Shown here: positions 13,462-48,712 of the stretch, in pieces
Numbering within the stretch: the stretch's first letter is position 1
Layout: each line of letters starts with the position of its first letter
DNA from: a virus
Lineage: Duplodnaviria; Heunggongvirae; Uroviricota; Caudoviricetes
DNA: 49,715 nucleotides
Direction: 5' to 3' (one strand)
IMG/VR virus record: IMGVR_UViG_2851949629_000006
Span: 1-49,715 of that record
The notes under the pieces: model-generated
Databases searched by the model: none
Told to the model about the DNA's origin: nothing
Seen by the model: only the letters and a program-made list of their open reading frames with translations
Translations under genes and position numbers: made by a program

Positions 13462-14046
13462 TTATTGTTTGTTTTTTTCGTTCTGGTTGATGACAAATTC
13501 AATGTAACTTTCGATCTTTGCCTTCTCTGTTTCAGGTAACAATGCGTAGCGCGAGCGGTCATAGTTGATAGTCGCGGGGTCGTGCGGGTGAATCAGTAAT
13601 TCATAGCCGTGACGCCCGAATGCGGATGCAACATTCTCCAGGGTGGAAATGGAAACGCTGACCTCATTGTTTAACAGGCGGCTGATTGTCACCTGGGCGA
13701 CGCCGGATGCGCGGTGAAGTTTTCCCTGAGTTGAAAGGTCGCGGCTTTCGCTCATCCAGCGTTCCAGGTTGTGAGCCGCCAGCTGACCAATGTCGCTTGG
13801 GCCGACAGGCTGAAAACCTTCCTGAGAAAGCGAGCGATCGATATCAAGCCAGTTACGGGGTTTATTGGCGGCAGCTTCAATTTTTCGCGCAACCTGGTCG
13901 CCGATAACCTTCTTGCCAAGAGCCCAGCGGTTTACCAGATTTGCCTGAGTTCCAAGTTTTTCTGCCATCCGCGTCTGAACACCATTGAATTCACGGTCGA
14001 TCAAGTCGTTGAGATTTTGCCTGCGGACGTCCTGGATACTTTTCAT
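13462..14046 (-). CDS. prophage repressor with two HTH domains and no S24 peptidase domain
   Basis: Sits between the O_L and O_R palindrome clusters, divergent from the cro-like gene. Two HTH-like segments (TRMAEKLGTQANLVNRW and GVAQVTISRLLNNE). No Ser-Lys autocleavage domain recognisable. Confidence 0.6.
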   Translation of the reverse strand: MKSIQDVRRQNLNDLIDREFNGVQTRMAEKLGTQANLVNRWALGKKVIGDQVARKIEAAANKPRNWLDIDRSLSQEGFQPVGPSDIGQLAAHNLERWMSESRDLSTQGKLHRASGVAQVTISRLLNNEVSVSISTLENVASAFGRHGYELLIHPHDPATINYDRSRYALLPETEKAKIESYIEFVINQNEKNKQ

Positions 14047-14101: not shown

Positions 14102-14164
14102 TTACCCAACAGGTAAATGCACCCCATAGGTAACTATCCTTGATTTTTGTTACCTTATGGGTGA
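14102..14164. promoter_or_regulatory. O_R-like operator cluster: TTACCCAACAGGTAA (14102-14116), half-site CATAGGTAA, TTACCTTATGGGTGA (14150-14164)
   Basis: Palindromes in the 154-bp divergent region between repressor start (14046) and cro-like start (14201). Confidence 0.6.
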
Positions 14165-16401: not shown

Positions 16402-16478
16402 TTACCTTATGGGTAATAAAATATTCTAAAATCTATTGATTTCGTGTCTTATGTGGTTTTTAATTACCTTAGGGGTAA
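16402..16478. promoter_or_regulatory. promoter region with two operator palindromes (TTACCTTATGGGTAA 16402-16416; TTACCTTAGGGGTAA 16464-16478) and a -35/-10 candidate (TTGATT 16436-16441 / TTTAAT)
   Basis: Same TTACC-N5-GGTAA operator as O_L/O_R, immediately upstream of the ATG at 16482. Confidence 0.5.
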
Positions 16479-40728: not shown

Positions 40729-41268
40729 TTACCAAAACTTGTACCACGGGGATTTATCCTTCAATGGACAATCCTTCCATCGTGTGGCCAACCATTCATA
40801 TTCTTTAAAATATGTGTTTATGTTTTCTTTTTCTCTAATAGCTTGTATAAGAGGTAGCGCAATCTGATAGTTATTTACAACGGAGCTGTAAAATACTTCC
40901 TTAATCATGGTCTCATCATAAGTTTTCCGCTTCACGCTCACAGCCATGCGTTCGTAGAAACCTAGACAGTAAATTATTTCTCTCTTCTCTATCTTTTCTT
41001 CATCCGTAAGATCAGCCTGCCCATTGCTTGGATACATATAAGAGCGGAATGATTTGTTCGATTCGTGAATGCGGCGCATAGTAGATAGGCCTTTCTTATA
41101 ATCTACATCAAACCTGCTTTCACCAAGGAATACTGAAGTGTGTACTTTTCTCGCTGTATTTACATTATAAATAATAGTAGCGATAGCTATGAACAAGCCA
41201 AGCGAAACCGCGACTGCACTTACGATTTGAGCCACAGCCATGGCAAATTGCATTTCTTCACTTAACAC
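40729..41268 (-). CDS. N-terminally membrane-anchored protein (179 aa), accessory gene
   Basis: GTG start with GGAGA RBS; one N-terminal TM helix (FAMAVAQIVSAVAVSLGLFIAIATIIY) then a soluble domain; AT-rich codon usage. Confidence 0.5.
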   Translation of the reverse strand: MLSEEMQFAMAVAQIVSAVAVSLGLFIAIATIIYNVNTARKVHTSVFLGESRFDVDYKKGLSTMRRIHESNKSFRSYMYPSNGQADLTDEEKIEKREIIYCLGFYERMAVSVKRKTYDETMIKEVFYSSVVNNYQIALPLIQAIREKENINTYFKEYEWLATRWKDCPLKDKSPWYKFW

Positions 41269-41289
41269 AAACTGTCTCCAGACATGAAA

Positions 41290-41309
41290 ACGGGGCCTAA
41301 TGGCCCCGT
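41290..41309 (-). terminator. intrinsic terminator downstream of the antirepressor gene
   Basis: Hairpin ACGGGGCC-TAAT-GGCCCCGT; on the minus strand it is followed by TTTTCAT. Confidence 0.5.
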
Positions 41310-41485
41310 CATAAAACTATCCGAATGTTAAACGCCTTCGTACTCGTCAAATTTTCTCATGTGGGCTCCTCCTGTATCGGTGCCTAATCGCTATGGATCA
41401 CCCGTAAGGTAATAGTACTCTATTCACCCCCGGTCTGCAATCTGTACAGAATTATTTAAAGGCACATCCCTGTGCCGCCGTTCTG

Positions 41486-42142
41486 TCAGAAGAACCCTGC
41501 CTTGTCGTTGATGTACTCCGCGTGAGTCTGGATATCACGCAGGCATTTGCTCACACCGACGATGTAGCAGAACATGGTGGTCAGCTCCGCCGCCGCGCCC
41601 GATACGTCGTGCCCGTCGTCCTGTAACTGGTTCAGCAGATTCATCAGCAGTGAGTTCTCCGTCAGGCCGAGAACACCAGACGGAGAATGAATCAGACTGC
41701 GGTAGCCAGGCTTCAGTGGGGCGCTGTATTCTTTTTTGTCTTCCAGCTTGATCGCCTCCATAATGGCGGGCATGAAGCCTGACAAGACCTTCTCCACTTT
41801 TGTTTCTTGTTGTCTTAAACGTTTCTCGCATTCAATGAAGTAGCGTCGCACCTGGCGACCTTTTTCGTTACGCTCGACCATTGCCAGCTCTTTGGCTGTA
41901 TCGAGGGTGAGGTGGTACTCTTTGCGGTTGTGGCCGCCTCTACCAGATGTTTGCTTTCCCAAATTGGAAAGCAAAATATAGTCTTGATTTTCAATGAATT
42001 CGTATTCTGAAATTCGATTTGTAATCCATGCTGCAAACACCTTTTTAACACCTAAAAAAGCGTGCAGATCGCGGGCATTACAAAGTAGGGCTGTTTCGTT
42101 AGATATAGTGCCGTTGAATACGGGGATGAGTTGAGCGTTCAT
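41486..42142 (-). CDS. antirepressor (AntA/Ant-like)
   Basis: 218 aa; N-terminal ...[22 protein letters not shown]... and ...[35 protein letters not shown]... resemble the AntA/AntB N-terminal domain. GGAG RBS. Confidence 0.6.
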
Positions 42143-42296
42143 GATGGTGTCTCCACTTAGCGAATTACATCACCACCGCAACGCCAATTACTGGTGGTGA
42201 ACTGAACAAGGTTGGCGTACCGGCCTAAGTGGTACCGGCGTCCTTTCGGACCCCTGCCCAGCCCACCATAATTCGGATATAGCTGTGCTTAACGCA

Positions 42297-42320
42297 TAAA
42301 AAAACCACGTCTGGCGTGGT
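42297..42320 (-). terminator. intrinsic terminator/attenuator within the ant leader (or 3' end of a small RNA)
   Basis: Minus strand reads ACCACG-CCAGA-CGTGGT followed by seven T (plus strand A-run 42298-42304); located about 110 nt downstream of the predicted ant promoter and about 150 nt upstream of the ant start codon. Confidence 0.5.
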
Positions 42321-42410
42321 ATGCGCCACTTAGTAACTCGGGACGCCAATCCCGGCACTGGATTTTGCCAGTGCCCGATTACTATGGCACAAGAGGAGTG
42401 CGATGTAAAT

Positions 42411-42533
42411 TTACCGTAAAGGTAATAATAAATGCATAACTCACGTTATTTCAACCCTATGTGGTTTGATTGATCCCATTTCAGAAAATACCTGCCTATT
42501 TTTTTGCCAGTATGCGTATACTTTCGATAGAAT
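42411..42533. promoter_or_regulatory. divergent promoter region: operator TTACCGTAAAGGTAA (42411-42425), motif TATGTGGTT (42458-42466), and a plus-strand sigma70-like promoter TTGCCA-17bp-TAGAAT (42505-42533)
   Basis: Operator identical in form to O_L/O_R; on the minus strand a TTGAAA -35 with the -10 overlapping the operator is positioned to drive the ant leader. Confidence 0.5.
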
Positions 42534-42562
42534 GTTAACCCTAGAGGTAGTTGGGGGTGCCC

Positions 42563-43066
42563 ATGAACACGAAGAGAGTTGCAGCGATGAGGCATAGACG
42601 CTTGACCTTGAAAAAGTCTGAAAAAGAAAAAGAGAAAAAGATGGTGATTGAAGCAGCCGCCATAGCAACTGCCAATGCCATCAGGATTCATGATGAAGAA
42701 GTTGAGCAAAAATACCCGGTTATGTTCATCACTGAATACGACCAGCATGAGGCATTGTTAAAAATCCGGGGCACATCTTTTGAAGGAATCTTGGCAGATA
42801 AGCTTCATCGTGCCTCATGTCAAACGAATATAATGCGACCTTACGAGTCAAGGCTAATCGAAACTGGACGCTCCAAGGATAAGCAGCAATTAGTTGAGAT
42901 GATAAAGCGGTATTATAAGTCATCTTTTAAGCCTACAGCGTCACATGAGGTTGTAATGCGAGAAGTACCAAAGATGTCTGTTGAAAAATCGCATGCAATC
43001 TCGCGCAGGATGTTTGCACGCACTGCTGAAGATATGGCTCAGGAGCTCTACGACGATGCCGAATAA
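42563..43066 (+). CDS. hypothetical protein, upstream partner of the YafO-like gene (candidate antitoxin/immunity)
   Basis: 167 aa from the ATG at 42563 (ORF track starts at TTG 42551); basic N-terminus; stop overlaps the downstream start (ATGCCGAATAA). Confidence 0.45.
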   Translation: MNTKRVAAMRHRRLTLKKSEKEKEKKMVIEAAAIATANAIRIHDEEVEQKYPVMFITEYDQHEALLKIRGTSFEGILADKLHRASCQTNIMRPYESRLIETGRSKDKQQLVEMIKRYYKSSFKPTASHEVVMREVPKMSVEKSHAISRRMFARTAEDMAQELYDDAE

Positions 43067-43562
43067 ATTCCAGGGGTTGGTTCACCCTGGAATTTTTGGG
43101 AAGGACCCTGAGCTAATACCTATCAAAAACGCGTTCATAGATCACTGGCGCTACGGTCATCATAAGGATTTCGGAAAGGACACTCTGTTTCGGGATCCAC
43201 CGAAAGAGATGCTGGAATATCACATACGCCACGTTCACGTAAACATCGGAAACTATACTGACAAGTTTGGTGAGAGCGGTACGGAACAATGCTGGAAAAA
43301 CTGGGCATCCGGGAAGAAAGACAAGACCACCAACAAGCATAAAAAAATACCAACCAGTGATGTATATGTGATTTATCTTGTAACGTCTGAGCGACATGCG
43401 TTTCTTCTGGATTACTGGGATGAGCCAGCACACAAAAAAGTAGAAATTGACGAACAGAAACAAAAACTTCTTGTCGAGTGTGACAGAATTTTGCGGCGGA
43501 AAAATTTAGAATCCATGCCGCGCGATGCAAGTTTGTGGGACCCGGAATTTTACGACTGTTAA
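43056..43562 (+). CDS. YafO-family toxin-like protein (candidate type II toxin)
   Basis: 168 aa; segments HHKDFGKDTLFRDP and YHIRHVHVNIGN resemble the YafO segments DTFGRDALYDD and ERVAHIHLANE as I recall them. Confidence 0.45.
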   Translation: MPNKFQGLVHPGIFGKDPELIPIKNAFIDHWRYGHHKDFGKDTLFRDPPKEMLEYHIRHVHVNIGNYTDKFGESGTEQCWKNWASGKKDKTTNKHKKIPTSDVYVIYLVTSERHAFLLDYWDEPAHKKVEIDEQKQKLLVECDRILRRKNLESMPRDASLWDPEFYDC

Positions 43563-43586: not shown

Positions 43587-43862
43587 TTACCGGGTTTGTT
43601 TTCGTAATTGTTCGGCACAATAGTCGAGATGTGTTTGCAGATCCTGCATAGACATCTGTGAGCTGGTGACGTAGTTAATCAGTGCAGTCAGTTCGGCAAG
43701 TGGGCCATCGACATTAAATCCATCCTTATCGAGATCCCGGAGTAATTTCATCAAGTGCGATCCCTCCACCAGTGACCTGACGCCTCCCGGCGTGTGAATC
43801 CTTTCGGTAAATCCGTCTTCCAGTGGATAGTGATACCGCTGCATCTTATCTTCTCCATGCAA
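43587..43862 (-). CDS. small protein paralogous to the antirepressor C-terminal domain
   Basis: 91 aa; ...TPGGVRSLVEGSHLMKLLRDLDKDGFNVDGPLAELTALINYV...MQDLQTHLDY... parallels ...[42 protein letters not shown]...[10 protein letters not shown]... of the 41486-42142 product. Confidence 0.5.
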   Translation of the reverse strand: MHGEDKMQRYHYPLEDGFTERIHTPGGVRSLVEGSHLMKLLRDLDKDGFNVDGPLAELTALINYVTSSQMSMQDLQTHLDYCAEQLRKQTR

Positions 43863-43920: not shown

Positions 43921-43975
43921 TCACCTGAAAGGTAATATCTGTTCGTATTCACAGTCTGTCTATCCATATGTGGTT
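43921..43975. promoter_or_regulatory. divergent promoter region with operator TCACCTGAAAGGTAA (43921-43935) and motif CCATATGTGGTT (43964-43975)
   Basis: Between the Ant-C-like gene (minus) and the tail fibre gene (plus). Confidence 0.5.
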
Positions 43976-44039: not shown

Positions 44040-46061
44040 ATGACGGTCTCAACCGAAGTTGGCCACAACGAATACACTGGTAACGGCGTTACGACTACAT
44101 TCCCTTATACATTCAGGGTTTTCGATAAATCTGATCTGGTAGTGCAGATAGTTGACCTTGAAGAGAATATCACTGTCCTGGTTCTTGATACCGATTACTC
44201 AGTAACCGGGGTGGGGGGATACAATGGTGGCAATGTAATGCTGAGGACAGCGTTAACTTCTGGTTATCGTATTTTTGTATCGCGTGAGCTGCCTGTTACG
44301 CAGGAAACAGATCTGCGCAATCAGGGAAAGTTTCTGGCAGAGGTGCATGAGGATGCATTTGATAAGCTGACGATGCTTATTCAGCAAGTATTTTATAACC
44401 TGAGCAAGGTAATAAAAGTTCCTGAATCAGGGAACTGGTTGGTTCCAACAATTAGGTTAAGAAAGAATAAAATCTTTGCATGGGACGAAGAGGGAAATCC
44501 AATTGCTGTATCACCTGAATCAGGTAGTGCCTCTGATGTAATGATTGAGCTGGCAAAATCATCCGGGGCTGGGTTGATTGGCACAACGTCGGGGGGGACC
44601 GTTCAATCAGTACTGGATGAGTGTCATGCAAGGCTCATCACATGTGAGCGCAACAGCCGGGTGGAAAATTTTTACACGCTGGCGGAAACCTGCACAGCGG
44701 AGCTTTTATCGCTGAATGCCCCGGAGGCATATGACAAATCCATTACGCTGACGGTCAATGAGGAACTGACCACGGACTATACCGGTCCGGTCACAGGTCA
44801 TTGCAGCATCGGTAATCCGCATAACTACACCATTGCGATGTGTACGAGCACAACTCTGGAATATCAGGTTTCCTCGGTGGTACTGGAGAGTGACGGCACG
44901 TTCAGTTTCGCCAGAAGCTGGACTGGGGCTAAGTCTTTTAAACTGTATCGTACATCAAATAACGGTCTGGCAACCGTCTGGGAAGATCCGCTGTGTATCC
45001 GCTCTTACCGGATGCCATCGGATGCCGGGGATGAAACGGTAAGGGTGATGAAAGACCGTACATACACTTATGATCAGGCGGTGTCAGCTATTGCACTGAT
45101 GGCGCAGGGGAATAGTCAGGTGGAACAGTTTGTCCGTGGTTTGTGCGCGATTGTGGGTAGTGGTGGTAGCGAGGGGAGTGTGCCTTTTTTCGTGAACCGC
45201 ATGTCAGCGCAGACATCGTCACAGTATTACCGGACGGGAAACGCAGCGTGGGTGGCGTATGCGCTGGCGTATTATCTGCAGAAATATCCGGATGGTGAAA
45301 TGGCCGTTGTTGCCCGGGATAAACTAACGCAGTGCGCAGAGTGGATTGAAACGTTCAGAGTAGCAGACAGTGGTGATATTCGTTATGGGTTGTATACATC
45401 CGGTAGCGGACGGTATCTGGATGGCGTCTTTTACCCTGATTTTAAAGCAGACTGGTGCACATCGGAGCACCAGTTTGATTTGTGGTTTCTGTTTGACCTG
45501 ATGGGGCGGGTAGGCTTCACCGGCTACGCTGAAAAGGCGAAAGCCCTGGCGGATGCCATTATGGAAAAGCTGTGGGTGGAGGATGAAGGGCGATTTTATG
45601 CCGGGATGCGAACCACCGGGCCTGACAAGGCCTCACCACTGGACTGTGCAAGCTGGGGCGGGCTGTTTGTGTACAATATCGATATGGAAAAAGCCCGGCG
45701 GTGTTTTACTTACCTGGACAGATTCTGGTACGCCACGCACGATGCGACAGGGTACATGCCTTATCATCCGGAATATGGCTACCCGAATAAACAGCGGGGA
45801 GTCTGGGTGGAGGGCAGTGCAGGCGTGGCATTGCTGGCCCGTAGACTGGGAGATGATGCCACCGCGATGGATATTCTGGCGAGGCTGGCACCACTGCGCA
45901 CACGTTATGGTTACATTGATTCAAGCGATTATCCAGATAATGATGACATGCCGCCGTGGCCTTCTTCCTGCAACACGGCCTGGATGATACTGGCATGCGA
46001 TCCGCAGGGGTTCTGGAACGTTGGGGTAAGTAGTCTGTCTGGACGTTATTATAGGTATTGA
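44040..46061 (+). CDS. tail fibre/tailspike with T7 gp17-like N-terminal adaptor domain and a predicted enzymatic C-terminal domain
   Basis: N-terminal ...VTTTFPYTFRVFDKSDLVVQIVD...ITVLVLDTDYSVTG parallels the T7 gp17 N-terminus (...DFNIPFEYLARKFVVVTLIG...KVLTINTDYRF). C-terminal ~400 aa is helix-rich with Trp/Tyr/Asp/Glu-rich segments, suggesting an alpha/alpha-barrel glycosidase rather than a beta-helix. Confidence 0.55.
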   Translation: MTVSTEVGHNEYTGNGVTTTFPYTFRVFDKSDLVVQIVDLEENITVLVLDTDYSVTGVGGYNGGNVMLRTALTSGYRIFVSRELPVTQETDLRNQGKFLAEVHEDAFDKLTMLIQQVFYNLSKVIKVPESGNWLVPTIRLRKNKIFAWDEEGNPIAVSPESGSASDVMIELAKSSGAGLIGTTSGGTVQSVLDECHARLITCERNSRVENFYTLAETCTAELLSLNAPEAYDKSITLTVNEELTTDYTGPVTGHCSIGNPHNYTIAMCTSTTLEYQVSSVVLESDGTFSFARSWTGAKSFKLYRTSNNGLATVWEDPLCIRSYRMPSDAGDETVRVMKDRTYTYDQAVSAIALMAQGNSQVEQFVRGLCAIVGSGGSEGSVPFFVNRMSAQTSSQYYRTGNAAWVAYALAYYLQKYPDGEMAVVARDKLTQCAEWIETFRVADSGDIRYGLYTSGSGRYLDGVFYPDFKADWCTSEHQFDLWFLFDLMGRVGFTGYAEKAKALADAIMEKLWVEDEGRFYAGMRTTGPDKASPLDCASWGGLFVYNIDMEKARRCFTYLDRFWYATHDATGYMPYHPEYGYPNKQRGVWVEGSAGVALLARRLGDDATAMDILARLAPLRTRYGYIDSSDYPDNDDMPPWPSSCNTAWMILACDPQGFWNVGVSSLSGRYYRY

Positions 46062-48172: not shown

Positions 48173-48712
48173 TTAATTAAACCAGCTGTCCGATTTGTTC
48201 TCTTCTGCTTTGCCCACGCTTTTCATCAGATCGCGACCGCCTTCAGTCATATTTCTGTTGGCGTCAGCTTCAGATTGCACCACATCGGTTTGCGCAGCTT
48301 TGTGCTTCAGTTCCTGATCGATAAATTCGTTTTCTCGCTTAACGCGGGCTTCTTCTTTCGCCAGCGCCAGTTTTTGTTTCTGAATCTCTAAGCTGCGTAG
48401 CTCATCTTCATAACTTTGATCGCGTTTTTTGTCCGCAGAGGCTTCGGCGTCCAGTTTATCCTGACGAGCTTTCTTATTTGCCGCTGCCGTTGCCGCTCTT
48501 TTGTTAGCGGCGGCCTGGGCATTTGCGCGACGTTGCTTCTCTTGCTGGATTTCCCTGTTGCGCTCCGCGACCCATTCGTCATGCTGCCTTTGCTCTTCAT
48601 TTTTACCTTGCTGTTCCGCTTCTGCGACAGCAGAGAGTTGATCCTGCAATGATGAGGCGATAGCCGGATAGCTTAAGGAGGCTAAGATGGCGCAAAGAAA
48701 AACTTTCTTCAT
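48173..48712 (-). CDS. secreted coiled-coil protein (signal peptide; Lys/Glu/Ala/Gln-rich)
   Basis: N-terminal signal peptide MKKVFLCAILASLSYPAIAS; remainder highly charged and helical. Confidence 0.5.
   Translation of the reverse strand: MKKVFLCAILASLSYPAIASSLQDQLSAVAEAEQQGKNEEQRQHDEWVAERNREIQQEKQRRANAQAAANKRAATAAANKKARQDKLDAEASADKKRDQSYEDELRSLEIQKQKLALAKEEARVKRENEFIDQELKHKAAQTDVVQSEADANRNMTEGGRDLMKSVGKAEENKSDSWFN

Follow-up and report, generated by a model that had tools for sequence, protein, structure and literature searches.

A predicted P1 immI-type RNA immunity cassette in the antirepressor leader of an epsilon15/phiV10-like prophage

An antirepressor gene behind a terminator

How is an antirepressor gene controlled when a transcription terminator stands between it and its promoter? 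The question arises on the minus strand of a 49,715-nt viral sequence (IMG/VR record IMGVR_UViG_2851949629_000006; this whole stretch is the window referred to below), where a sequence-only reading had described hairpins and a terminator ahead of the gene ant. These structures are all present, with coordinates right to within one base, and ant does begin with an ATG at 42142, as had been proposed, preceded by its own GGAG (42154-42151, 8 nt upstream). The ant product matches PF08346 (E 4.2e-26) and phrog_377 "anti-repressor Ant" (E 2.8e-66).

On the minus strand, the 232-nt leader gives hits to two curated Rfam families, both above their gathering thresholds. From these matches, we read the leader as two described small RNA genes, IsrK and a C4 antisense RNA, which together would constitute an RNA immunity switch as in phage P1 and the Salmonella prophage Gifsy-1 (Table 1). 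The earlier view that the leader is more than a passive 5' UTR is thus upheld, while the C4 antisense RNA gene (RF01695) between the terminator and ant had been overlooked; in the corrected annotation of the window, the 232 nt before ant are assigned to two RNA genes and their targets, not to a UTR. We consider it highly probable that this locus, in an epsilon15/phiV10-like (Uetakevirus) prophage, is a P1 immI-type RNA immunity cassette, with its function carried over from P1 and Gifsy-1 by analogy. We see in it an unremarkable, unannotated instance of a known system that departs little from its models: it lacks an icd/orf45 coupling ORF and has an AntA-type antirepressor.

Folding of the leader and covariation across homologs had been suggested as checks, and both bore out a structured RNA. 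The minimum free energy (MFE) of the whole leader was -96 kcal/mol, compared to -75.6 ± 5.0 for shuffled leaders (z = -4.1; 0 of 200 shuffles as good), and the C4 stems, IsrK hairpin 1, hairpin 3 and the a and b modules described below all covary. A permissive Rfam search of positions 41300-42600 returned isrK, C4 and c4-a1b1, plus RT-7 at chance level, and no isrJ 3' of ant. ARAGORN found no tRNA or tmRNA in the leader; the sole tRNA was a tRNA-Arg at 23624-23700.

Table 1. Predicted features of the ant leader and adjoining sequence (window coordinates).
Feature	Position	Strand	Description
Upstream promoter-like site	42425..42454	-	TTGAAA, 18 nt, TATTAT; 10/12 matches
Putative palindromic operator	42411..42425	.	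TTACC-N5-GGTAA; -51 to -37 relative to IsrK start
IsrK promoter	42381..42409	-	-35 TTTACA 42409-42404, 17-nt spacer, TG 42389-42388, -10 CATAGT 42386-42381
IsrK small RNA, 77 nt	42298..42374	-	hairpin 1 (42374-42355), hairpin 2 (42354-42339), intrinsic terminator
a1 = UUGGCGU	42343..42349	-	IsrK hairpin 2, loop plus 3' side; complement of C4 a'
b1 = CUAAGUGG	42326..42333	-	in IsrK, 5 nt 5' of terminator stem; complementary to C4 b'
Intrinsic terminator of IsrK	42297..42320	-	ACCACG-CCAGA-CGUGGU, then U7
C4 antisense RNA (Rfam match)	42190..42273	-	RF01695
b' = CCACUUAG	42225..42232	-	second hairpin of C4, loop; partners b1 and b2
a' = ACGCCAA	42212..42218	-	C4 junction, single-stranded; partners a1 and a2
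Hairpin 3	42170..42200	-	UCACCACC (42200-42193) with GGUGGUGA (42177-42170)
a2 = UUGGCGU	42181..42187	-	starts 6 nt past predicted C4 3' end; in hairpin 3 loop
b2 = CUAAGUGG	42153..42160	-	overlaps ant Shine-Dalgarno GGAG (42154-42151); ends 10 nt before ATG
ant	41486..42142	-	ORF; 218-aa antirepressor, AntA/AntB N-terminal domain; regulated gene

IsrK and its terminator

The promoter-proximal segment matched the isrK model (RF01394) over its full length (model positions 1-77; 67.2 bits, gathering score 50, E 2.5e-12) and folded with z = -2.9 relative to shuffles. The isrK architecture is present, with two 5' hairpins, a single-stranded stretch and a Rho-independent terminator (RNAfold and terminator scan) behind a predicted promoter of its own. 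Downstream of this segment come a C4-like RNA, to which parts of the segment are complementary, and an antirepressor gene; the c4-a1b1 model (RF03163) also aligned at 42335-42387, with 44.3 bits slightly below its gathering score of 46.7. A separate small RNA had been raised as one option for the leader, and the terminated small RNA fits that description as IsrK.

A hairpin previously given as 42353-42374 is real and, like the terminator, belongs to the isrK match; its coordinates were one base off, with GGCACTGG (42375-42368) pairing with CCAGTGCC (42361-42354) at -15.3 kcal/mol. Compensatory changes were found in six of the seven pairs of this hairpin 1 among 85 sequences. The isrK-pattern scan of relatives held AAAATC, CGGGATTG and CCCG fixed, so covariation is uninformative for the stem of hairpin 2 and for UUG in a1. 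The GC hairpin with seven U is present as described, and falls on the model's terminator helix in the alignment to isrK: the stem ACCACG/CGTGGT (42320-42304) closes the loop CCAGA and is followed by seven T (42303-42297), with -7.6 kcal/mol for the hairpin alone. Related loci carry differing GC hairpins and a U-run at the same place.

Promoters and operator

From the best promoter, transcription would begin near 42374 and give a terminated RNA predicted at about 77 nt, not the roughly 110 nt proposed earlier. The predicted start, G42374, is position 1 of the Rfam isrK model, and in P1 the annotated -10 of P51b (48218-48223) lies equally far before an isrK-like match starting at 48230. Two promoter-like sites flank the palindrome, which is itself a dispersed operator-like motif in the window: allowing at most one mismatch, it occurs at 13 sites compared to 0.75 expected (0 of 100 shuffles reached 13), and pairs of sites flank the gene for a 194-aa HTH_3 repressor (13462-14046). 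The operator half-sites are conserved in relatives with a variable spacer, and related Uetakevirus loci retain a -10-like sequence (TATTAT/TATATT) immediately 5' of the palindrome.

The suggestion of an operator-overlapped ant promoter needs to be divided between the two sites, as the palindrome only abuts the -35 of the best promoter and overlaps the -10/+1 region of the upstream one. The upstream -10 abuts the operator, so that a start from this site would fall inside it, and we regard it as a candidate repressor-controlled promoter analogous to P1 P51a. For the IsrK promoter, an operator centred near -44 could mean activation rather than repression.

The C4 antisense RNA and its complementary modules

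The C4 model (RF01695) matched at positions 1-87 with 64.7 bits (gathering score 45, E 2.2e-10). The segment folds at -40.8 kcal/mol (z = -4.3), its MFE structure consisting of the model's long closing stem and two internal hairpins, and 19 of the 27 pairs show compensatory changes among 75 sequences. Mature C4 is predicted to span 42267-42193 (75 nt, 5'-GGUGGG...CACCACC-3'), with ends set by homology with the 77-nt P1 C4, whose own ends come from GenBank annotation. The 5' G and the acceptor-like 3' end of P1 C4, ...CACCACC(A), are retained here.

By sequence, two loops of C4 are complementary to both the ant ribosome-binding region and IsrK. The 49.7-kb window has three occurrences of the motif TTGGCGT-N(5-30)-CTAAGTGG, all within 200 nt, where none is expected by chance; two copies lie on the RNA strand and one is present as the complement, in the C4 loops. 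Complementarity is perfect across all three copies (a, 7/7; b, 8/8). Among 101 distinct related leaders, the exact complement of a1 was found in C4 in 97 and a2 was present in 95, and the modules themselves were diverse, the a module coming in at least 11 types and the b module in more than 30, in mixed combinations. Across distinct types, a1:a' pairing was 98.1% versus 75.9% when shuffled, and a':a2 pairing was 90.5% versus 71.9% (0 of 500 shuffles as high in each case). The longest complementary run between b' and b1 averaged 7.05 nt for cognate and 4.5 nt for non-cognate pairs. In nearly all related loci, b2 lies over the ribosome-binding site and ends 6-12 nt before the downstream start codon.

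In Gifsy-1, the a1:a' pairs G28-C162 and G31-C159 were proven by compensatory mutations (Hershko-Shalev et al. 2016, PMC4825925), and G42347 and G42344 here correspond to Gifsy-1 IsrK G28 and G31. RNAcofold returned no intermolecular IsrK/C4 helix, both partners staying folded, a result that is weak either way because loop-loop kissing (by modules of 7 and 8 bp) lies outside its model; RNAduplex of the whole RNAs unfolded everything and was uninformative on pairing. The case for pairing consequently rests on covariation instead of whole-RNA predictions.

Alternative folds of the leader

The hairpin CACCACC/GGTGGTG at 42171-42199 is exactly as the sequence-only reading stated, with its core strands at 42199-42193 and 42177-42171, and extends to 8 bp (-16.0 kcal/mol, z = -3.7). 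Its description as an independent stable hairpin does not stand, as its 5' arm is also the 3' strand of the C4 closing stem, making it an alternative fold that forms only if C4 is unfolded or unprocessed. This hairpin 3 is conserved: 89 of 95 leaders have 7 bp or more, and compensatory variants include GCTACCAC/GTGGTAGC, CCGCCACC/GGTGGCGG and TCCGTC/GACGGA, among others. The MFE fold of the read-through leader combines hairpin 3 with pairing in cis of a1:a' and b1:b', and two mutually exclusive folds (C4 versus hairpin 3) are predicted. Two further pairings that would sequester the ant start, GGUGGUG/CACCAUC (42149-42143) and UGUUCA/UGAACG, were seen in single-sequence folds, and were dropped as a conserved element given the z-score of the translation initiation segment (-1.0) and the lack of consistent covariation.

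Proposed control of ant

An extended -10 promoter, beside a putative operator for the phage HTH repressor, would start transcription near 42374. Judging termination frequency from Gifsy-1, most transcripts would end at the intrinsic terminator as 77-nt IsrK, and a minor share would read through into C4 and then directly into ant mRNA. C4, a tRNA-like stem with two hairpins, would probably have its 5' end cut by RNase P, as in P1. Its b' and a' would then pair with b2 (over the ant Shine-Dalgarno) and a2, blocking ribosome entry so that no antirepressor is made; complementarity and covariation tie C4 to a2/b2, and repression would follow the P1 precedent. Since C4 would act in trans, ant on incoming phages with the same a/b code should also be silenced.

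IsrK holds a second copy of the target (a1, b1), and so may lift the block by binding either C4 itself or the C4 part of read-through RNA, as experiments in Gifsy-1 showed for the a1:a' helix (PMC4825925). Within a single read-through RNA, a1/b1 would pair in cis with a'/b', and the freed 3' strand of C4 would be held by hairpin 3; an equivalent pair of alternative folds was demonstrated in Gifsy-1 (PMC4825925). Whether Ant is made, and the prophage repressor thereby inactivated, would thus be set by the balance of IsrK, C4 and read-through. A plain picture of C4 as a repressor fits poorly with one result from Gifsy-1, where constitutive expression of the C4 equivalent (STnc1160) enhanced, and did not blunt, IsrK toxicity (PMC4825925). 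A bolder reading, which we hold less likely than not, is that IsrK is the long-unexplained a1b1 of P1 and that the three RNAs form a homeostat, in which C4 acting on nascent a1/b1 by the terminator sets its own read-through, free IsrK is a decoy that titrates C4, and the a/b modules are a combinatorial immunity barcode reshuffled by recombination.

Control resembling that of satellite phage P4 would shift the emphasis to termination. Pairing of C4 with a1/b1 and a2/b2 would then mainly raise termination, at the IsrK terminator or Rho-dependently in ant, and the leader would be a self-limiting attenuator, a reading that we consider rather unlikely. It agrees with the end of b1 lying 5 nt before the terminator stem, and P1 C4 reportedly lowers ant transcription via Rho polarity (Biere et al. 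1992). In P4 (seqA - CI RNA - seqC), likewise, a processed same-strand RNA pairs with upstream and downstream target copies on its own precursor; P4 is set apart, by description, in that CI causes premature transcription termination of replication genes and does not act on an antirepressor ribosome-binding site. The Gifsy-1 authors name P4 immunity as a structural analogue of their system and raise termination for STnc1160 (PMC4825925). However, the near-universal position of b2 on the Shine-Dalgarno points to a translational target, and in Gifsy-1 IsrK raised translation 139-fold and transcription only 8-fold (PMC4825925). The termination and translation-block mechanisms are not mutually exclusive.

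It had also been argued that ant production needs antitermination or processing. The part of this claim concerning read-through and RNA-level control is retained, whereas nothing points to a protein antiterminator, Gifsy-1 being read through in part. A simple attenuator, with the terminator as a cis block requiring an N- or Q-like phage antiterminator and the other hairpins having no RNA-RNA function, is very unlikely. Such a model could draw on the genuine intrinsic terminator between promoter and gene and on the Q-like gene beside the Gifsy-1 cassette, but it leaves the triple motif, the three-way covariation and the two RNA-family matches unexplained. Moreover, no Q- or N-like gene adjacent to the cassette was seen in the ORF list, and in Gifsy-1 a fraction of transcripts simply passes the terminator without added factors, with AntQ an output and not an input of the circuit (PMC4825925).

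Coupling of the Gifsy-1 type, in which translation of ant depends on that of a small upstream ORF through C4 (orf45), is barely conceivable here. The ATG that starts orf45 in Gifsy-1 is present (42270-42268, in TTATGGTGGG), but the equivalent frame runs for just 14 codons to a TAG at 42227-42225, with 82 nt left to the ant ATG, which makes such coupling impossible and refutes it by sequence at this locus; ant also has its own GGAG. No icd or orf45 coupling ORF between C4 and ant appears in the ORF list of the window, so neither Gifsy-1 translational coupling nor the Rho-polarity step of P1 is simply transferable. An Icd-like first ORF of 62-77 aa occurs in about 6 of 72 related loci. That the leader instead holds decayed RNA remnants in a defective prophage is similarly hard to credit: nothing specific speaks for it, although complete E. 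coli genomes yielded no exact copy of the leader (97% at best). Against it, all module copies are perfectly complementary, with promoter, terminator and ant ORF intact.

Least credible is control as in P22 immI, by an opposite-strand cis-antisense RNA (sar) and an Arc-like protein, since the complementary RNA here has its gene on the ant strand, upstream of ant (and is proposed to act in trans), no arc-like ORF lies between promoter and ant in the ORF list, and a promoter scan found no plus-strand promoter-like site within 42143-42425. The comparison with sar/arc made earlier is thus reduced to a loose functional analogy, the shared theme being an operator-bearing promoter and an antirepressor kept off in the lysogen, partly by RNA over its ribosome-binding site; in P22, Arc and Mnt are proteins, and no such features were seen here.

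Relationship to known immunity systems

The true relatives of the cassette are P1/P7 immI and Gifsy-1 isrK. Based on GenBank annotation and secondary papers for P1, immI (Op51-P51a/P51b, a1 b1, c4, a2 b2, icd, ant1/2) has all RNA elements in the same order and on the same strand as here. In both, the a modules are 7 nt and the b modules 8 nt long, a2 lies a few nucleotides past the C4 3' end, b2 ends 10 nt before a start codon (the icd ATG in P1, the ant ATG here), and C4 has the same fold and matches RF01695. Both also have an isrK-like terminated a1b1 element starting at the downstream promoter (P51b in P1) and an antirepressor as the output, and the palindrome at the upstream promoter-like site would be the counterpart of the main-repressor operator at the upstream promoter of P1. 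The systems differ in that icd is absent here and b2 lies directly over the ant ribosome-binding site, in the AntA-type antirepressor (PF08346, 218 aa), and in the host element, which is epsilon15/phiV10-like and related to Uetakevirus genomes, whereas P1 is a plasmid prophage. In the annotation of P1, the C1 operators are 17 bp long and unrelated in sequence to the 15-bp palindrome here, and the P1 a/b code (TTGACAG / GTTAGTGA) is different.

The Gifsy-1 isrK-orf45(STnc1160)-anrP locus (Hershko-Shalev et al. 2016, PMC4825925) matches the isrK and C4 models in the same order and spacing, followed by a2, b2 and the antirepressor gene. It shares the identical a module (UUGGCGU / ACGCCAA), the GGUGGUGA strand after a2, the position of b2 on the antirepressor ribosome-binding site, a long RNA made by terminator read-through, and two alternative folds with a1:a' in cis (predicted here). 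Its b module is AUCACCG, and its orf45 runs through C4 and overlaps the anrP start, while the frame here is closed. Gifsy-1 differs further in that here there is no isrJ 3' of ant and no adjacent Q-like antiterminator gene was seen.

Distribution and implications

The P1 c4 and Gifsy-1 IsrK literatures appear to describe one device. P1 c4 is uncited in the Gifsy-1 paper (PMC4825925), and the two literatures are therefore not joined, within the literature searched. The known working of the device is unchanged by our findings, which predict prophage immunity at the level of ant toward phages sharing UUGGCGU / CUAAGUGG; phiV10 carries a different b code (b2 CUAAAAGG). In the records examined, deposited annotation names neither RNA and shows either nothing or protein-coding genes at this place, some drawn across the RNA genes. 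Both RNAs were found in all 14 related phage loci, and the cassette in 261 phage records and 456 of 5,426 complete E. coli genomes.

The ant leader is an isrK/C4 cassette

The minus-strand leader preceding ant is a typical, so far unannotated isrK/C4 immI-type cassette. An Rfam search of the window at curated thresholds returned three matches, two of them on the minus strand in the leader: isrK (RF01394; 67.2 bits, threshold 50) and C4 antisense RNA (RF01695; 64.7 bits, threshold 45). A permissive search added c4-a1b1 (RF03163, "a1, b1 targets of C4 antisense RNA") slightly below threshold, at 44.3 bits. The terminator and hairpins described in the sequence-only reading were present: a GC-rich 6-bp hairpin, ACCACG/CGTGGT (42320-42304), followed by seven T (42303-42297), found by reading the minus strand of 41000-43400 and by a scan; a strong 5' hairpin, GGCACTGG/CCAGTGCC, at 42375-42354, one base from where it had been placed; and a minus-strand CACCACC/GGTGGTG pairing at 42199-42171 (hairpin 3). 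The ATG at 42142, also as proposed, begins a 218-aa ORF, whose product is an AntA-type antirepressor (PF08346, E 4e-26; phrog_377 "anti-repressor Ant"). The 5' hairpin is the first helix of IsrK and the terminator its last; counted from the best promoter, the terminated RNA would be about 77 nt long, not the roughly 110 nt first estimated. Folding, suggested as a check, went beyond chance (whole leader z = -4.1; C4 -4.3, isrK -2.9, hairpin 3 -3.7).

C4 carries two modules, a' and b', whose complements, UUGGCGU and CUAAGUGG, each occur twice on the same strand, as a1 and b1 in IsrK and as a2 and b2 between C4 and ant. Module b2 overlaps the GGAG Shine-Dalgarno sequence of ant and ends 10 nt before its ATG. 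Across the 49.7-kb window there are exactly three occurrences of the pattern TTGGCGT-N(5-30)-CTAAGTGG (0.00 expected), two of them on the minus strand and one on the plus, all inside 200 nt. The idea of a separate small RNA with read-through needed for ant stands, but the C4 gene had been missed: the stretch taken for spacer is this second RNA gene, matched by Rfam. The parallel drawn with P22 sar/arc is a loose analogue, the true relatives being other isrK/C4 loci (P1, Gifsy-1).

Features of the ant leader, its surroundings and the palindromic sites
Feature	Position	Strand	Remarks
91-aa ORF	43587-43862	-	phrog_450; operator-like site just upstream
168-aa ORF	43056-43562	+	phrog_1651, unknown function
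167-aa ORF	42563-43066	+	phrog_9503, unknown function
Best promoter	42409-42381	-	TTTACA, 17 nt, TGnCATAGT; start at about 42374
c4-a1b1	42335-42387		Rfam, sub-threshold
isrK	42298-42374	-	Rfam
a1	42349-42343	-	in IsrK
b1	42333-42326	-	in IsrK
C4	42190-42273	-	Rfam
b', CCACUUAG	42232-42225	-	loop of C4 second hairpin
a', ACGCCAA	42218-42212	-	C4 junction
a2	42187-42181	-	between C4 and ant
b2	42160-42153	-	between C4 and ant
DUF4760 protein	40729-41268	-	PF15956, E 2e-30; phrog_2284; downstream of ant
tRNA-Arg (anticodon TCT)	23624-23700	-	within phage-like region
TTACC-N5-GGTAA	13328-13404, 14102-14164, 16402-16478, 20795-20827, 24023-24037
TTACC-N5-GGTAA, continued	41398-41412, 42411-42425, 43921-43935, 45227-45241

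Conservation and covariation of the modules

The window is similar to epsilon15/phiV10-like Uetakevirus genomes. IsrK was followed by C4 in all 14 related phage loci fetched. The leader was present in 261 phage records and, of 5,426 complete E. coli genomes, in 456; scanning viral contigs for the pattern added 120 loci, with 101 distinct leaders. Among these 101, C4 contained the exact complement of the leader's own a1 in 97 and a second a copy lay 3' of C4 in 95; the set comprises 11 types of a and over 30 of b. Between the b' region and b1/b2, the longest stretch of complementarity averaged 7.05/7.6 nt for cognate and 4.5/4.8 nt for non-cognate modules. With a', a1 and a2 positioned by independent anchors, the three-module pairing covaried across homologues, a check put forward with the original hairpins: a1:a' was paired at 98.1% (75.9% shuffled) and a':a2 at 90.5% (71.9% shuffled), none of 500 shuffles reaching either value and slid controls giving at most 44%. 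Compensatory changes were found at 19 of 27 pairs in C4 and 6 of 7 in IsrK hairpin 1.

In nearly all loci b2 ended 6-12 nt upstream of a start codon, and the genes that followed differed (Bro-N, AntA, other antirepressor types, sometimes an Icd-like ORF of 62-77 aa), the commonest arrangement being ant directly after b2, as in the window. Mismatched modules in three viral contigs (a1 unlike a'/a2 in L108 and L034; a2 unlike a1/a' in L081) suggest recombinant or escape variants, and two further contigs (L045, L124) held two cassettes apiece, with differing codes. Several GenBank phage records (L011, L012, L013, L014, L008 and others) carry "Ash family protein" or "hypothetical protein" annotations over the isrK/C4 region; these ORFs are probably mis-annotations.

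Comparison with P1 and Gifsy-1

The GenBank annotation of P1 (48230-48470 of record L135 compared) runs Oc4 (Op51), P51a, P51b, a1 (7 nt), b1 (8 nt), c4 (77 nt), a2 (7 nt), b2 (8 nt), icd, ant1/2, with b2 ending 10 nt upstream of the icd ATG, and the window matches it element for element, module lengths and 10-nt gap included. Rfam scored P1 at 68.8 bits for C4 and 51 bits for c4-a1b1; a sub-threshold isrK match (35 bits) begins at the P51b start and terminates as a hairpin and U-run. Because of this start and the shared layout, we take IsrK to be the a1b1 element of P1.

The Gifsy-1 record (L136, 34074-34316) has isrK (79 bits), C4 (69 bits), a2, GGTGGTGA, b2 and the anrP ATG in that order, b2 sitting on the ribosome-binding site. 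Its "orf45" starts at an ATG in the conserved C4 5' end (TTATGGTGGG) and runs through C4, and the stable processed RNA STnc1160 maps to this stretch (Hershko-Shalev et al. 2016, PMC4825925); orf45/STnc1160 fits the C4 model at 69 bits, with the c4-a1b1 model overlapping IsrK. The positions of the compensatory mutants G28A/C162U and G31A/C159U (PMC4825925) are those of a1 and a'. The Gifsy-1 a module is identical to that of the window, and by way of this homologue the a1:a' helix has direct experimental support in cis and in trans. In Gifsy-1 only part of the transcripts read through the IsrK terminator, and the read-through RNA is translationally silent until turned on by short IsrK in trans (PMC4825925). 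Extra STnc1160 raised, rather than lowered, IsrK toxicity (PMC4825925), which counts against a simple transfer of these models to the window, as does the absence there of an icd/orf45 ORF, the frame shutting after 14 codons. The P1 c4 and Gifsy-1 IsrK literatures appear unconnected, since the 2016 paper mentions neither P1 c4 nor RNase P (PMC4825925).

Hairpin 3 uses the 3' strand of the C4 closing stem as its 5' arm and so competes with the C4 fold. It is conserved all the same: 89 of 95 leaders form it with 7 bp or more, and GCTACCAC/GTGGTAGC and CCGCCACC/GGTGGCGG are among its compensatory variants. In the predicted minimum-energy structure of the complete read-through leader (-100 kcal/mol, versus -88.9 for the modular fold), cis a1:a' and b1:b' helices occur along with hairpin 3, resembling the silent "structure A" of Gifsy-1; hairpin 3 may keep the freed strand in this alternative fold, with a2 displayed in its loop.

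Promoter and putative operator

Relative to the IsrK promoter, a TTACC-N5-GGTAA palindrome at 42425-42411 occupies -51 to -37; it also covers -10/+1 of an upstream promoter-like site. The motif (at most one mismatch) has 13 sites in the window where 0.75 would be expected, often paired at 48-62 bp spacing, and site pairs flank a gene for a 194-aa HTH_3 protein (13462-14046, minus strand) that adjoins a lambda-P-like replication gene. Because of this excess and these flanking pairs the palindrome is most likely an operator of the prophage repressor, and the set looks like dispersed operators. The layout recalls that of P1, in which P51a is under C1 control and P51b has an annotation of its own with no operator; binding at the palindrome could repress, spare or activate the IsrK promoter.

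Proposed regulation

The sequence elements, how they complement each other and covary, and their homology with two loci studied by experiment are observed; how the RNAs are processed, which way regulation runs in this phage and what the operator does are inferred. IsrK would be driven by its own promoter, with most transcripts terminating and read-through yielding C4 and ant mRNA. C4, probably set free by RNase P as in P1, would cover a2 and b2 and exclude ribosomes from ant in cis, and would likewise silence ant of incoming phages with a matching code, while the decoy targets in IsrK would counter C4. A P4-like termination mechanism is a less likely but serious alternative, and could operate together with this translational block. 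As a tentative joint reading, IsrK/a1b1 could possibly be both C4-sensing attenuator and decoy, and the a/b modules a recombining immunity barcode.

Neighbouring genes

Over the last 78 residues of Ant, the 91-aa ORF is 44% identical to it (E 6e-20); the ORF is a free-standing duplicate of that C-terminal domain. Phages of the phiV10 type carry an 85-aa ORF annotated "similar to epsilon15p19" directly before isrK, which is probably its counterpart. The overlapping 167-aa and 168-aa ORFs sit between the 91-aa ORF and the IsrK promoter, neither matching Pfam or PADLOC; Escherichia phage EC.W1-9 was the only other phage record carrying this insertion, and the pair may be an accessory (moron) insertion. 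The DUF4760 gene had no PADLOC match, and in the gap of about 220 nt separating it from ant lie an operator-like site at 41398-41412 and, near 41310-41285, a GC hairpin with T-run. Gifsy-1, too, has a tRNA-Arg near its isrK locus.
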